The position numbers and the translations under genes were made by a program. Positions 18,457 through 60,055 of a stretch of DNA of 64,000 nt are shown in pieces. The number at the start of each line of letters is the position of its first letter. Within the stretch, counting starts at the first letter, position 1. The notes beneath the pieces are model-generated. The model had not been told where the DNA came from, searched no databases, and was given only the letters and a program-made list of their open reading frames with translations. The DNA lies in assembly GCA_003193925.1 (NCBI GenBank), contig PSPG01000006.1, forward strand, positions 33,095-97,094, written 5' to 3'. Origin of the DNA: Candidatus Thalassarchaeum betae (GTDB lineage Archaea; Thermoplasmatota; Poseidoniia; Poseidoniales; Thalassarchaeaceae).

Positions 18457-21078
18457 ATGCCAAATGATACGCCTGAGGCCCAGAAACACGGTTCCGATAC
18501 CACACCGCGAAAAATCCGGAGCATGCATCGCAGGCGCCTCCTGAATCGTCTTACTGAAGGAGGCGGCACGGTCAGCGTCCTCGCACGCGAGGTCGGGCTC
18601 AGGGTCCCACACGCCTCAGCCGAACTAAGACGGATGAGAAACGATGGACTGGTCGCCAGCGACCTGTCTGCAGGAAGCCGTGGTGCAAGGATCCACCTGA
18701 CCGAATCGGGATGGGAGTCGGTGAGGGATGACGAGTTGGCCAGGGCCACCGAGGCCTTGCCTCTGCCGGATGACACCAGCATGTGCTGTCTGCTGGCTCG
18801 TGACGGACCCAACCTCCTGCTGGGTGTTATGGAGCCAACTGACTCCCCATTGCTGCTGATTCCGGACCGCCCTCCGAGCCCCGTCGGCGACGACTCGTCG
18901 TCCACCGGAAGCGATGGGGTACCTTGGAGTTGGGCCGTGCTGAGGGAGAGGAATCCGAGGTGGTTCGACCTCTCCTCAATGGAGGTGAAGCCTGCCCCCC
19001 CTCCCTCCTCTGATCCAGAGAGCATAGCGGCCTACGCAGGTGAACGGACAGTGATCGGGATTATCCGGGCTCGCCTGCTGGACTCGGAGCGACCCGTCGC
19101 AATAGCCCCTGGTCAGTGGTTCGGCACTCCGAGCTTCCGACCGGCGCCACCACTGCCCGAGAGCAGTTATCACAGGGGCCAGTGGGTGCTGGGCGCTTGT
19201 CACGAGCTCTCTCCGCATGTTCGACCCAAGGATCCGATTGCCGCAGTTATGGAGGAGAGACTGCCCCGCACAATGCTGCTGCGGACTGCGAGGGCCAACT
19301 CGCTGGTCATCGCCGACCTCGGCGGCCTCGACGCCGAGGGCGACGCCTATCCACTGTCCGCGCTCGATTTCTGGATTGAGCGGGCCCACCCGCGTCTGAC
19401 CGACGCCGAGCGACGCAAGCGGGTGCAGGCCCTGCGCGACCGAGTCAGCGCGACGCGCAGGGTGCGGACCGACGACTCGACCTGGCGTCGCTTCAGGAGG
19501 GACTGGGGCGAGTCGGTGTTCACCGACGACGAGGACGCCATTAGGATCCTCGACCTGAGGGGCTTGGGCGGCTCATCGGGCGAGGCGCTCGTGCGATGGG
19601 CGCTCAACGACGAGGAGCGCCCCCCGATGGTCCTCGAAGTCAGCGATGACCTGCCTGACGACCTGGTGTCTTCGATCATCTCCCACTCCAATCTGCGGCT
19701 GGCACTCCTCGAGAGGGACACCCCCGCATTCGCATCCCTCGACAGGCTGGTGGCCGACCCACTGAGGCCTCTGCCTTGGCTGCAACTCTCGACTAGGGGA
19801 GGCAGGATCCTGCCCATTCGCCTCATGGACCCGATGCAGACTCCAATGTTCATCGCCTTGGATGACCCTGCCCCGTCCCCATGGGCCTCCCTGGGCATCG
19901 AGCTGGATGAGCCGGCAGAACTGGACGAGGGCCACCTGTCGGTGATCAACTCGGCAATCTCGCAGCACCCGAACGGCAGCGAGGAGTGGGCCAATCAGAT
20001 GGAGGCCAGATACCCGATCGCCGCTTGGATTGCGTCACCCCCACGAACTAGATGGCCGCGGTGGCAGCGACTCCGGGACCGACTGAGTTCCGAATGGCTG
20101 GTCCTCATGGATCTCGACAACCTGCCATTGGAGAGGCTCTCGGAGGTCGCCGAGGAGGCTCCCGACTCGGTACTCGCCGAGTTTTCCAGCAAGTTGACTC
20201 TGAAGTTCAGGGAGGATTCGGAGACTGCCCTTCGAGCCAGACCGGCCACCGATCCCAAGGACGCGTCTCGCGGGGCGGCTTGGGTCGCAACCCAACTACT
20301 GTCAAACGCCCCCTGGCTGCCTGAGCACATGCACGCAGACCTCCTGCGTTGGTCACTCGAGGCATGGCTATCCCACCCTCCCCTGCACTCCCTGCAGGCT
20401 CTCGAGGGAGTCGCGTGGCTCTACTCCTCCGGCAGGAATGACGATGCCAGTTTCCGGCCGATACTCGAGGGGATACGCAGCAGGGGGCGGGAGATGCCGA
20501 AGGGTCACGACCTGAACACATGGGCCAGGCTCGTGGACAGGGTGCTCGAAGGGAGCGAACTCGATTTGGAGGAGTTGGAGAGGACCGCCAGCGTCCTCCC
20601 GACTGGATGGTGGGCACCAATCTCTCCTGAGATTCTAGTCATCCTCTTGAGGGAAGAGGAGTCCACTGACTGGCTCATCTTGAACCCACTTCCCTGGTGC
20701 GCGGCAGTCCTACGCCCCGTCGGTGAGGAGTGCCAGGCCCCCGGGTTGCGTTCCTACACGCACCCCGGATGCGACCCCGAGATCCACTCCTTGCTCATTC
20801 GCAGGCTCCGTGGGAGGCGCGAGCGCGAGGGCCTGCCCGACAGCGCTGCGCCCTTGCTCGACCTGATGGAGGCGCTCGACGCCATCAACGAAGGGAGGGC
20901 CCCCCGTCCAGGCAGGACCCATCCGCTCTCGGGATGGCTGGCTCAGCCTGTCGAGAAGTGGCCCAAGTTCTCCGCCAGCGTCGCATTGGACGGCGATGCT
21001 GAGATCGCCGAGAGACTGCTGCTCCGAAGCTCGGGTTATCACACAGGAATAGTCTCCTCCACTTCGATTTCGGGCTGA
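18457..21078 (+). CDS. Large hypothetical protein with N-terminal winged-HTH
   Basis: TVSVLAREVGL..HASAELRRM..GLV..IHLTESG wHTH, followed by ~780 aa Trp/Pro/Leu-rich unknown region. Confidence 0.75.
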   Translation: MPNDTPEAQKHGSDTTPRKIRSMHRRRLLNRLTEGGGTVSVLAREVGLRVPHASAELRRMRNDGLVASDLSAGSRGARIHLTESGWESVRDDELARATEALPLPDDTSMCCLLARDGPNLLLGVMEPTDSPLLLIPDRPPSPVGDDSSSTGSDGVPWSWAVLRERNPRWFDLSSMEVKPAPPPSSDPESIAAYAGERTVIGIIRARLLDSERPVAIAPGQWFGTPSFRPAPPLPESSYHRGQWVLGACHELSPHVRPKDPIAAVMEERLPRTMLLRTARANSLVIADLGGLDAEGDAYPLSALDFWIERAHPRLTDAERRKRVQALRDRVSATRRVRTDDSTWRRFRRDWGESVFTDDEDAIRILDLRGLGGSSGEALVRWALNDEERPPMVLEVSDDLPDDLVSSIISHSNLRLALLERDTPAFASLDRLVADPLRPLPWLQLSTRGGRILPIRLMDPMQTPMFIALDDPAPSPWASLGIELDEPAELDEGHLSVINSAISQHPNGSEEWANQMEARYPIAAWIASPPRTRWPRWQRLRDRLSSEWLVLMDLDNLPLERLSEVAEEAPDSVLAEFSSKLTLKFREDSETALRARPATDPKDASRGAAWVATQLLSNAPWLPEHMHADLLRWSLEAWLSHPPLHSLQALEGVAWLYSSGRNDDASFRPILEGIRSRGREMPKGHDLNTWARLVDRVLEGSELDLEELERTASVLPTGWWAPISPEILVILLREEESTDWLILNPLPWCAAVLRPVGEECQAPGLRSYTHPGCDPEIHSLLIRRLRGRREREGLPDSAAPLLDLMEALDAINEGRAPRPGRTHPLSGWLAQPVEKWPKFSASVALDGDAEIAERLLLRSSGYHTGIVSSTSISG

Positions 21079-21134
21079 AAGCCCGCAATATACCAACCGA
21101 GGGGTTCTTGACCACCTCCGGTGGCCGATGTACT

Positions 21135-21406
21135 CCCGAGCTGCAACACCGTGGCGACGAAGCCCCCCGCTGGAGGAATAGGATGAATCACGGTACCAAG
21201 TTCGGGTCGCCACTTGTCGAAGACCAGTGTGACCAGCTGCAATGGAATGATCACTGGAGCAAAGCAAGTGGCCGGATTGTGTTAGGTCCCCGGATGACCG
21301 GAAGGAATGAATCAAGGGACTACCCTACAATCCGACAGACGTCCCGGGGTGGGTCAGGCGCCTGAGCCAAGCTGTGAAGGCCGCCGTTACGCCCCGGGGC
21401 ACACAT
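21135..21406 (+). ncRNA. Four-hairpin box H/ACA pseudouridylation guide RNA
   Basis: Four consecutive stem-pocket-stem hairpins, each with an apical K-turn-like motif; ACA at 21335 and 21401; HP4 pocket complementary to recalled 23S helix 69. Confidence 0.85.
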
Positions 21407-21441
21407 TTCAACCCGGAGCAAGAAACGAGGTGGGAATTCGA

Positions 21442-22458
21442 ATGCACAGCGTCGGTCTGATCGGCGGCACATTCGACCGCTTCCATGCCGGCCACCTGTC
21501 CCTGCTCCAAAGCGGCCTCTCGGAATGCTCCTCGCTGGAGGTCTGGCTGACCTCCGATGCGGCAACCGGAACGAAGGATCCGCGCATCAATCCGTGGGAG
21601 ACTCGCGCCGGTGAGATGAGGGAAGCGCTCGGGCAGGATGCAGAAAGGGTCAGCATGCATGTCCTTGAGGACAACCACGGACCAGCTTCGACTCACACCG
21701 ACGCCTCCGCTATCGTCTGCACTGCAGAGACCCGTCCGGAGTGCGAGATAATCAATCGGATGAGGGGCGACAACGGGCTGGACGAACTGGCAATCATTGA
21801 GGCCGAGCACGTCCTCGCTTGGGACGGCGATCCGATTTCGAGCACGAGAATCAGGAACGGCGAGATCGACCGCGAGGGACTGCCTTGGATTCCGGACTCG
21901 GTCAGAGAGGGCAGAATAATACTGACTCCGGAGGTCGAGGCAGAGCTCAAGGAGCCGTTCGGCCTATTGGTGCCGGGCCCAGAGGACGACCCTTCCGTAG
22001 CCATGTCCGAGGTACTTGCCCATACTGAATGGGAGTGGGGCCCGATCATCGCCGTCGGGGATGTGACTGTCCGCGCATTGCAGGACCTCGGCCGTCCAGC
22101 TGACATCGCTCTGGTCGACGGGCGCACTAGGAGGGAGCCTTGGGAGGGCGCCGAGGGGCTCGATCCCTCGGCCTACGATGGGGTGTTGCATTGCGAGAGC
22201 CCCGCTGGCTCCCTCACCCCCTCCTTATTGGAAGCCTGCGAGCACGCCGTGTCCTCTTGGATGGAAAGCCGAGCGACCCATCTCATTGAAGTCGACGGCG
22301 AGGAGGACCTAGCTCCTCTGCTCCTGCATCCTCTCGCCCCGCTTGATTCGGTAGTGCTCTACGGCCAGCCTGGCAAAGGCGTCGTCGTCAGGTGGTGCAG
22401 CGAGGAAGCCAAGCAGCGCTGCCGCAGGCTGCTGAGCGGTTTTAAGCCGGCCGATTGA
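21442..22458 (+). CDS. coaD: Fused phosphopantetheine adenylyltransferase / GTP-dependent dephospho-CoA kinase (DUF359)
   Basis: GGTFDRFHAGH and ISSTRIRNGEID, then LKEPFG, VGDVT, DGEEDL, LYGQPGKG. Confidence 0.9.
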   Translation: MHSVGLIGGTFDRFHAGHLSLLQSGLSECSSLEVWLTSDAATGTKDPRINPWETRAGEMREALGQDAERVSMHVLEDNHGPASTHTDASAIVCTAETRPECEIINRMRGDNGLDELAIIEAEHVLAWDGDPISSTRIRNGEIDREGLPWIPDSVREGRIILTPEVEAELKEPFGLLVPGPEDDPSVAMSEVLAHTEWEWGPIIAVGDVTVRALQDLGRPADIALVDGRTRREPWEGAEGLDPSAYDGVLHCESPAGSLTPSLLEACEHAVSSWMESRATHLIEVDGEEDLAPLLLHPLAPLDSVVLYGQPGKGVVVRWCSEEAKQRCRRLLSGFKPAD

Positions 22459-59902: not shown

Positions 59903-60055
59903 GCCGAGGTGGCGTAGTTGGTAGCGCGTCGGACTCATAGGGTAACATTCAGCGGGGACTCGCTCCCTGCAGATGCATCGATGAGCGCAACAGCCTAACT
60001 GAAGATTGTCTGAGACATCCGAAGGTCGAGGGTTCAAGTCCCTCTCTCGGCACCA
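59903..60055 (+). tRNA. Elongator tRNA-Met(CAT) with 77-nt intron (59940-60016)
   Basis: GCCGAGG/TCTCGGC acceptor stem; BHB with CTCA/TGAG helix and TAG/ACA bulges at 37/38; CCA encoded. Confidence 0.9.

Follow-up and report, generated by a model that had tools for sequence, protein, structure and literature searches.

A four-hairpin RNA related to HgcG/Pab40 as a candidate box H/ACA guide in Poseidoniales archaea

The spacer locus and its four hairpins

Here we describe a predicted non-coding RNA of Candidatus Thalassarchaeum betae, an archaeon that NCBI taxonomy places under Poseidoniales, Thalassarchaeaceae. The window analysed is a stretch of 64,000 nucleotides from contig PSPG01000006.1, and the RNA lies in the spacer between an open reading frame (ORF) ending at 21078 and another starting at 21442. 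Four abutting hairpins (HP1 to HP4) occupy 21135-21403 of the plus strand, each unit comprising a lower stem, a pocket, an upper stem and a tandem G.A kink-turn (K-turn) signature. A preliminary description of the locus had drawn these hairpins with their stems, pockets and boxes and had assigned them to a spacer RNA beyond any ORF; all of them are in the sequence as it stated, and the ends of the flanking ORFs leave the RNA unexplained by either. On sequence evidence, the region is almost certainly an archaeal box H/ACA guide RNA. Its features are as follows.

21135-21406, plus strand: whole predicted transcript, ~270 nt, with four H/ACA-type hairpins (316.6 bits with our covariance model R1; ends predicted)
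21135-21206, plus strand: HP1, the extra hairpin, without an ANA box; lower stem 21135-42/21199-206, upper stem 21148-54/21188-94
21209-21272, plus strand: HP2, the counterpart of Pab40 motif 1, without an ANA box; lower stem 21209-16/21265-72, upper stem 21224-29/21252-57 plus a U.U
21273-21337, plus strand: HP3 with ACA at 21335-37, the counterpart of Pab40 motif 2; lower stem 21273-81/21326-34 (RNAfold, HgcG match and RNAalifold)
21341-21403, plus strand: HP4 with ACA at 21401-03, the counterpart of Pab40 motif 3; lower stem 21341-49/21392-400, upper stem 21357-63/21378-85 with one bulged C
21096-21111, plus strand: promoter-like motif ACCGAGGGGTTCTTGA, at about -39 to -24 relative to HP1, a putative element of the transcription factor B recognition element (BRE)/TATA type; the motif is conserved in relatives

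Folding of 21125-21415 with RNAfold recovers the same four hairpins on the plus strand at -117.2 kcal/mol, compared with -100.5 ± 5.5 in dinucleotide shuffles (z = -3.0; 0/200 as good). The minus strand of the same stretch gives z = -0.3, with 66/200 shuffles as good. The four-hairpin fold is thus strand-specific.

All four hairpins show the K-turn or K-loop signature, in which a GA on the 5' strand is opposed by (N)NUGA on the 3' strand; the tandem G.A pairs are at 21156-57/21185-86 in HP1, 21231-32/21249-50 in HP2, 21296-97/21309-10 in HP3 and 21364-65/21376-77 in HP4. The 3'-strand element reads AAUGA in HP2 (21246-50, below an apical stem of 2-3 bp) and in HP3 (21306-10), and UGUGA in HP4 (21373-77). 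In HP2 and HP4 the pocket is separated from the G.A pairs by 6-7 stacked layers, the register of Pab40 motifs 1 and 3 in the Rfam alignment; the distance is 7-8 layers in HP1, and in HP3 it is 7 layers only if the GUC/GAC base pairs are open. In archaeal H/ACA units the upper helix H2 has 5-6 bp, according to the excerpted text of PMC2377435.

The stem of HP1 has the sequence CCCGAGCT/AGTTCGGG and encloses a pocket of GCAAC (21143-47) and ACCA (21195-98); that of HP2 is GCCACTTG/CAAGTGGC, with a pocket of TCGAAGA (21217-23) and AGCAAAG (21258-64). HP3 carries an invariant GGUCC (21285-89) and a 3' guide strand UACCC (21321-25), and the HP4 pocket consists of UGGGUCA (21350-56) and GUUAC (21386-90).

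An ANA box accompanies each archaeal H/ACA motif in the excerpted texts of PMC2377435 and PMC7075261. Counted on the sequence, the ACA boxes lie 14 nt below the upper stem of HP3 (21321-21334) and 15 nt below that of HP4 (21386-21400), the distances given in the preliminary description and the canonical spacing. HP3 and HP4, each anchored by an ACA, conform to the canonical archaeal H/ACA unit, and it is through these two that the RNA qualifies as H/ACA; HP1 and HP2 are atypical. In HP2 the upper stem and the far end of the lower stem are the canonical 15 nt apart, but HP3 adjoins directly and its first bases stand where an ACA would be; after HP1 comes TC. Because the ANA box is missing from both, the activity of HP1 and HP2 is less certain than that of the other two.

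We infer that the motif at 21096-21111 would serve as a promoter and set the start of the RNA near HP1. At an equal distance (~24-39 nt) 5' of HP1, most of 52 loci collected across three families of the order have a related motif, and the genome (1.48 Mb) contains the pattern CCGANGNNTTC[AT]T nine times. T-rich tracts lie 3' of the ACA of HP4 in most relatives. As a side observation, the motif ACCGAnGnnTTC(A/T)T occurs at eight other places in the genome besides 21096-21111, some of them a few tens of nucleotides before an ATG, and it is possibly a lineage-specific promoter element.

The upstream neighbour is an ORF of 873 amino acids (18457-21078, plus strand), in which Pfam at E <= 0.001 found no family. 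The downstream neighbour (21442-22458, plus strand, ATG at 21442) fuses a cytidylyltransferase-like domain (residues 6-139) to DUF359 (residues 212-334), and we refer to it as coaD-DUF359. The ORF finder had proposed a longer downstream frame, from 21307, that overlaps HP3 and HP4; this is probably not the true start.

Public sequencing data hint at an abundant small RNA from the locus. Among 24 listed runs, part of the stretch is present in 20, of which 15 are registered as RNA. For four RNA libraries, from four studies, we compared assembled contigs of relatives 90-99% alike with the locus. Together they cover parts of 21096-21504, and contigs of high depth are confined to 21156-21397. In library X1, word depths of 366, 182 and 120 on contigs over 21158-21382 compare with 2.6 on the contig of the adjacent gene; the depth is 369 over 21237-21397 in X3 and 7.4 over 21156-21393 in X2. 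Adapter sequence follows directly after 21382 in X1 and after 21397 in X3. Over 21135-21155 there is no contig cover in X1 or X2.

Conservation, distribution and relation to HgcG

The window as a whole yields four tRNAs and nothing else at the Rfam gathering thresholds. One tRNA match, at 59903-60052 (plus strand), spans 150 nt for a model of 71 positions, implying an intron of ~80 nt; this is a side observation. A permissive scan adds HgcG (RF00064, the family of Pab40) at 33.0 bits (E 2.2e-7), over 21210-21399 and model positions 58-268, and Pab160, which matches HP4 at 21.9 bits. HP2, HP3 and HP4 are collinear with the three hairpins of HgcG; HP2 aligns to model positions 58-123, and the ACA after the first hairpin is a deletion in the alignment. 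Model positions 1-57 are unstructured AT-rich upstream sequence, and for that reason Pab40 has no counterpart of HP1. Membership of RF00064 would call for a score of at least 77 bits and three motifs each with an ANA box, and the RNA described here has neither. It is homologous to HgcG in the order of its hairpins and in its targets, as judged from sequence, and too diverged and rearranged for the curated model.

Relatives were reached by several routes. BLASTN with the region recovered 18 of 20 genomes of the same genus (87-95% identity) and all four genomes of other genera of the family (~70%); in two other families of the order it found none in 16 genomes, and the copies there were reached through sub-threshold Rfam matches. 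With stricter filters, Rfam HgcG gave two weak matches in 121 genomes of the order and missed the copy of the source genome itself, and our own covariance model of the whole RNA (R1) was used in its place. With R1, 147 of the 151 Poseidoniales genomes sampled have exactly one full-length match each, spanning 22 of 22 sampled genera; among the sampled genomes, the counts by family are 71/74 (f1, the family of the source genome), 2/2 (f2) and 73/74 (f3). Three relatives can be named, two Candidatus Thalassarchaeum betae metagenome-assembled genomes (MAGs) and one MAG labelled 'Thermoplasmatota archaeon'; in them the RNA scores 255-310 bits and lies 36-43 nt upstream of the gene of the downstream protein, which is 72-84% identical. 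A genome scan with a descriptor of K-turn plus ANA hairpins gave five loci against one in the reversed control; it missed the positive controls HP3 and HP4 and is uninformative.

In the alignment of relatives the pockets are invariant and changes in the stems are compensated, the outcome that a true structured RNA was expected to give when the preliminary description proposed a covariance model as a check. RNAalifold arrived at the four hairpins as well, and 26 of its 70 pairs are compensated. A curated structure of 73 pairs was scored on 21 sequences drawn from three families: 91.1% of its cells are paired, and both sides change in 40 of the pairs; not one of 500 shuffles reached any of the five measures, and controls with slid partners were 33-48% paired. 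Changes on both sides affect six of eight lower-stem and four of seven upper-stem pairs of HP1, and five of eight and five of six, respectively, in HP2. In HP3, eight of nine lower-stem pairs covary and the GUCCC/GGGAC stem never does; in the upper stem of HP4, five of seven pairs covary.

For invariance and boxes we used 52 sequences (50 distinct), the R1 matches among 57 loci, the other five loci being chance pattern matches elsewhere in genomes. GCAAC, CGAAG, GGTCC and GGGTCA and all eight GA dinucleotides of the K-turns are invariant in this set. In HP1 the ACC is likewise identical in 52/52 sequences, together with GCAAC and both of its GA dinucleotides; GCA accompanies CGAAG in HP2, and GTT accompanies GGGTCA in HP4. 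ACA is present after HP3 in 51 and after HP4 in 50 of the 52. The HP1-HP2 junction is 2-6 nt long, and the HP2-HP3 junction is empty in 33 sequences and 1-5 nt long in 19; these boundaries come from an alignment fitted to R1 and depend on that fit.

Outside the order, in sister families of the class, R1 gives shorter matches in 28 of 43 genomes (f4) and in two of two (f5). Twenty loci were aligned: HP1 with its GCAAC/ACCA pocket is present in nine of nine inspected loci of the order and in none of 11 inspected sister-family loci. The latter 11 have three hairpins, with ACA, AUA or AAA after the first, and upstream of them unrelated sequence that has no K-turn signature. As a separate observation, an AT-rich, TATA-like sequence lies just 5' of the three-hairpin sister-family RNA in small AT-rich genomes. 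The simplest history that fits these sequences would start from an ancestral three-motif RNA, to which a 5' hairpin was added in the ancestor of the order, and whose first internal ANA was eroded.

A search of the sister families for a free-standing HP1 identified no ancestor of it. The strict pattern GCAAC..GA..TGA..ACCA occurs in 12 of 43 and one of two genomes, and the matches listed have no complementary stems and are about as frequent as those of the reversed-pattern control.

Predicted rRNA targets and guide proteins

Pockets were paired with ~4.4 kb of rRNA. In the assembly the 23S gene (contig C11, minus strand) breaks off near model position 2663 of 2987, and the 16S gene near 1320 of 1478. 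The large subunit (LSU) rRNA was completed with the 3' part from a genome of the same genus, 97.6% identical over a 1.7-kb overlap, and all LSU numbers refer to this composite. For the small subunit (SSU) rRNA a complete same-genus sequence was used, the organism's own 16S being cut at its 3' end and short of 16 nt in a conserved stretch. The own 16S (contig C9:97159-98434), cut at the contig end, also lacks 10 nt near its 5' end relative to the same-genus 16S; these gaps are probably an artefact of MAG assembly.

From the HP4 pocket the preliminary description had predicted the target GUAAC-U-N-UGACCC, in helix 69. The organism's own 23S helix 69 reads GGGGGTAAC-T-A-TGACCCTC (in RNA, GGGGGUAAC-U-A-UGACCCUC), exactly as predicted. 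HP4 has its top site at own LSU U1954, which lies in the loop of helix 69, GUAAC[UA]UGACCC, with 5+6 bp (11 in all); three of 300 shuffles were as good. The site of HP2 escaped a scan that demanded pairing right up to the nominal upper stem and was recovered once the top of the pocket could shift: own LSU U2528, UUGC[UA]CUUCGA, with 4+6 Watson-Crick pairs (10) and one of 300 shuffles as good. This pairing counts an A.A at the top of the pocket as an extension of the upper stem. The 3' base at that position is A in 19, C in two and U in one of 22 relatives, and because it varies it is not a guide base. Only the targets of HP4 and HP2 are statistically clear; HP1 and HP3 can be fitted to rRNA less strongly, and the proposal that each pocket be paired with the genome's own rRNA thus gave clear sites for two hairpins of the four.

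HP1 has a single site with at least 3+3 pairs, LSU U2638 in GGU[UU]GUUGC, with 3+5 bp. In HP3, the invariant GGUC and (U/A)ACCC fit LSU GGGUU[UA]GACC at U2618. This model agrees with two distance rulers (PMC2377435, excerpt): its 5' duplex is flush with a seven-layer upper stem below the G.A pairs, and its lower stem plus 3' duplex measure 14 nt above the ACA. An alternative, judged by inspection, is U2586, on the side of the A-loop, in GGGGUUG[UU]C. Where the 3' guide reads CAACCCC, as in most lineages, this site would form 7 bp, and here 6 bp with one mismatch; its 5' duplex would be almost nil. A candidate in SSU rRNA, GGGUAG[UC]CUAG, was rejected as the HP3 target: the 5' guide bases that it requires vary in the family, and the 9-nt match is lost where the guide reads CAACC.

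These sites can be set beside those of related guides. In excerpts of PMC2377435, Pab40 motif 1 is assigned to Psi2588 (Psi, pseudouridine) of Pyrococcus abyssi 23S rRNA and motif 3 to position 2016 in stem-loop 69; motif 2 of Pf7/Afu4 is assigned to the equivalent of P. abyssi U2678, which is a Psi in haloarchaea, fly and mouse, an older proposal having been the equivalent of 2647; and P. abyssi 2698 is a position frequently modified in eukaryotes. P. abyssi numbers exceed those of our composite LSU by 62 at 2016 and by 60 at 2588, 2678 and 2698, and 2646 would likewise stand 60 above U2586. By this numbering offset, rather than by alignment to P. abyssi, U1954, U2528, U2618 and U2638 would correspond to P. 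abyssi 2016, 2588, 2678 and 2698.

The target sequences of all four hairpins are identical between the LSU rRNAs of families f1 (the source genome and one other, G011) and f3 (six genomes for the domain V sites; for helix 69, four genomes that are identical and two more by a first regular expression). Covariation between guide and target cannot show where target sequences are identical in the families compared; the invariance of the pockets parallels that of the targets.

The core H/ACA proteins Cbf5, Nop10 and L7Ae and a Gar1-fold protein are all encoded in the genome. Ribosomal_L7Ae scores 72.5 bits and Nop10 43.2 bits, and a Cbf5-type DKCLD domain lies in a frame of 328 amino acids. Pfam Gar1 was not detected in this genome, and in none of 41 genomes from the order does it exceed its cut-off; 19 of them have weak matches below it. 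Such weak matches led to a candidate outside the window, on contig C18 of the same genome (C18:87295-88149), in a frame of at least 285 amino acids. Its first 89 residues were modelled from a four-sequence alignment (predicted local distance difference test, pLDDT, 85; predicted template modelling score, pTM, 0.72), and the 14 best PDB matches listed for this domain are Gar1 chains of H/ACA ribonucleoprotein (RNP) structures, led by 2ey4_D (E 4e-4, template modelling score 0.83) and then 2hvy_B; the sequence-profile match to 2hvy_B is not significant (E 1.2). Arginine-glycine (RG)-rich repeats follow the domain, and after them three RanBP2-type zinc ribbons. The model suggests that the product may be an archaeal version of Gar1 that carries a eukaryote-like RG-rich tail and zinc ribbons.

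Function, alternatives and comparison with known guide RNAs

We propose that 21135-21406 (plus strand) gives one stable non-coding RNA of ~270 nt that would act as a box H/ACA pseudouridylation guide with four guide hairpins, HP1 being an addition specific to Poseidoniales (Marine Group II). L7Ae would bind the K-turn of each upper stem and Nop10-Cbf5(-Gar1) would dock alongside. In 23S rRNA, an unpaired U-N would be flanked by the pairings of the two pocket strands, and that U would enter the active site of Cbf5. The predicted sites are U1954 for HP4, U2528 for HP2, U2618 (or alternatively U2586) for HP3 and U2638 for HP1. HP1 and HP2 would have to rely on the K-turn/L7Ae-Nop10 contact and on their lower stems, or possibly on stacking on the next hairpin across junctions of 0-2 nt.

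Confidence differs between the parts of this proposal. Sequence comparison makes it likely that the RNA is a four-hairpin H/ACA guide orthologous to Pab40/Afu4, with HP2, HP3 and HP4 active and HP1 probably so. That all four hairpins form pseudouridine is evenly balanced between yes and no. More tentative still, and somewhat doubtful, is the proposal that HP1 and HP2 are active guides that would position Cbf5 without an ANA box, in what would be the first archaeal H/ACA RNP of four units. The guide reading of the preliminary description is supported by the structure, the HgcG match and helix 69, and has to be qualified for HP1 and HP2, which have no ANA box, and for the targets, of which those of HP4 and HP2 are clear.

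Several observations weigh against the proposal. In the 52 sequences as aligned, ANA follows HP1 or HP2 in none, and a two-stem-loop guide of Haloferax volcanii needs an internal ANA for its 5' stem-loop in vivo (PMC7075261, excerpt). The upper stem of HP1 is only 12 nt from where its lower stem ends, which is non-canonical, and the complementarity of HP1 is short (8 pairs), with 28 of 300 shuffles as good. No target of HP3 is set apart by the statistics, since 246 and 267 of 300 shuffles are as good, and the pairing of HP3 with U2618 leaves three guide bases (GAC) unpaired at the junction; in the free RNA this GAC pairs with GUC. The targets of HP1 and HP3 both lie in the part of 23S rRNA missing from the assembly and were read from the same-genus genome. 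The HgcG score is under the Rfam gathering threshold (33 versus 77 bits), and the RNA contigs, from relatives 90-99% alike, give neither ends nor strand.

In one alternative the RNA is a true H/ACA small RNA (sRNA) with only HP3 and HP4 catalytic, HP1 and HP2 acting as L7Ae scaffolds or as folding chaperones of 23S domain V. Silent in catalysis, the two would resemble snR30/U17, in which H/ACA architecture serves rRNA processing. We consider this unlikely: it would account for the ANA boxes missing in 52/52 sequences as aligned, for the short guide and spacing of HP1 and for the internal ANA needed in the H. volcanii guide, which is sR-h45 (PMC7075261, excerpt), and is opposed by the HP2 pocket, which is collinear with Pab40 motif 1 and fits the equivalent of the experimental Psi2588 by its ten Watson-Crick pairs with the canonical unpaired U-A. 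The pockets of HP1 and HP2 are, moreover, as invariant as those of HP3 and HP4, and in excerpts of PMC7075261 a guide of a single stem-loop is active without ACA, the box being dispensable for typical targets, in vivo as well as in vitro.

Much less probable is a cis-acting leader of coaD-DUF359, for example a set of L7Ae-bound K-turn operators controlling its translation. What speaks for such a leader is position, the RNA ending 36-43 nt before the start of coaD-DUF359 on the same strand both in the window and in the three named relatives. A leader would have no use for ACA boxes, bipartite rRNA complementarity or collinearity with Pab40, the word depth on the hairpins in X1 is 46-140 times that on the gene, and the T-rich tracts 3' of the second ACA in most relatives also count against it. 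Chance structure in a GC-rich spacer, for which nothing speaks beyond the high GC (~0.60), is refuted by covariation that beats 500/500 shuffles and all slid controls and by the full-length match in 147/151 genomes, and the z of -3.0 is confined to one strand.

With the four-hairpin guide as the preferred reading, a single gene of ~270 nt predicts four pseudouridines, in the peptidyl-transferase region and in helix 69. It fills an annotation gap, the curated Rfam threshold missing the gene. A fourth motif gained and two ANA boxes absent, stable across an order (147 genomes), amount to a natural experiment for the H/ACA field, and make it possible to ask whether a multi-hairpin guide can do without the ANA anchor and how RNPs fit together side by side. 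Should the box-less HP1 and HP2 be active, this would be a natural, order-wide case of ACA-independent H/ACA RNP assembly. Marine Group II archaea are abundant and uncultured, and we found nothing on their guide RNAs in the searchable literature.

Archaeal H/ACA RNAs have one to three motifs (PMC2377435 and PMC7075261, excerpts). A published archaeal H/ACA RNA with four hairpins was not found in a search that had subscription journals and supplements outside its range; the sole four-hairpin example found is the eukaryotic scaRNA13. This human RNA likewise carries four H/ACA hairpins on one molecule, with four protein sets; it differs from the RNA described here in sequence, in which the two are unrelated, in its make-up of two complete hairpin-H-hairpin-ACA domains and in the absence of K-turns (PMC9458449, excerpt).

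Guides that work, or are proposed to work, without ACA, as HP1 and HP2 would, are the H/ACA-like sRNAs of Pyrobaculum (PMC7075261 and PMC4652768, excerpts). Those are single hairpins that also have no lower stem, whereas HP1 and HP2 keep a covarying lower stem of 8 bp within a multi-hairpin RNA. A functional analogue of HP1 may be motif 2 of Pyrococcus Pab35 (Psi2549 and Psi2697), one site of which adjoins the equivalent of U2698; it belongs to another RNA and has an ANA box (PMC2377435, excerpt). Homology of HP1 to Pab35 found no backing in the permissive Rfam scan, which gave no HgcF match.

H. volcanii sR-h45 resembles the present RNA in that one molecule serves domain V (Psi2605) and helix 69 (Psi1940/1942), as predicted for HP3 and HP4; its stem-loops act independently. 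It differs in having two of them, together with a linker of 56 nt and an H-box-like AUA on which the 5' stem-loop depends. In its pocket for helix 69, UNUN stays unpaired and two Psi result; the HP4 guide pairs with the second U of helix 69, and therefore one Psi is predicted here (PMC7075261, excerpt).

The closest known relatives are Pab40, Pf7 and Pho40 of the Thermococcales and Afu4 of Archaeoglobus. HP2, HP3 and HP4 align in order to their three motifs, and K-turn or K-loop motifs and a terminal ACA are common to both (PMC2377435, excerpt, for Pab40/Pf7/Afu4). The RNA described here differs by the fourth, 5' hairpin and by the deletion of the motif-1 ACA. It is the Poseidoniales ortholog of Pab40/Pf7/Pho40/Afu4 with one added hairpin, and not a new RNA family.

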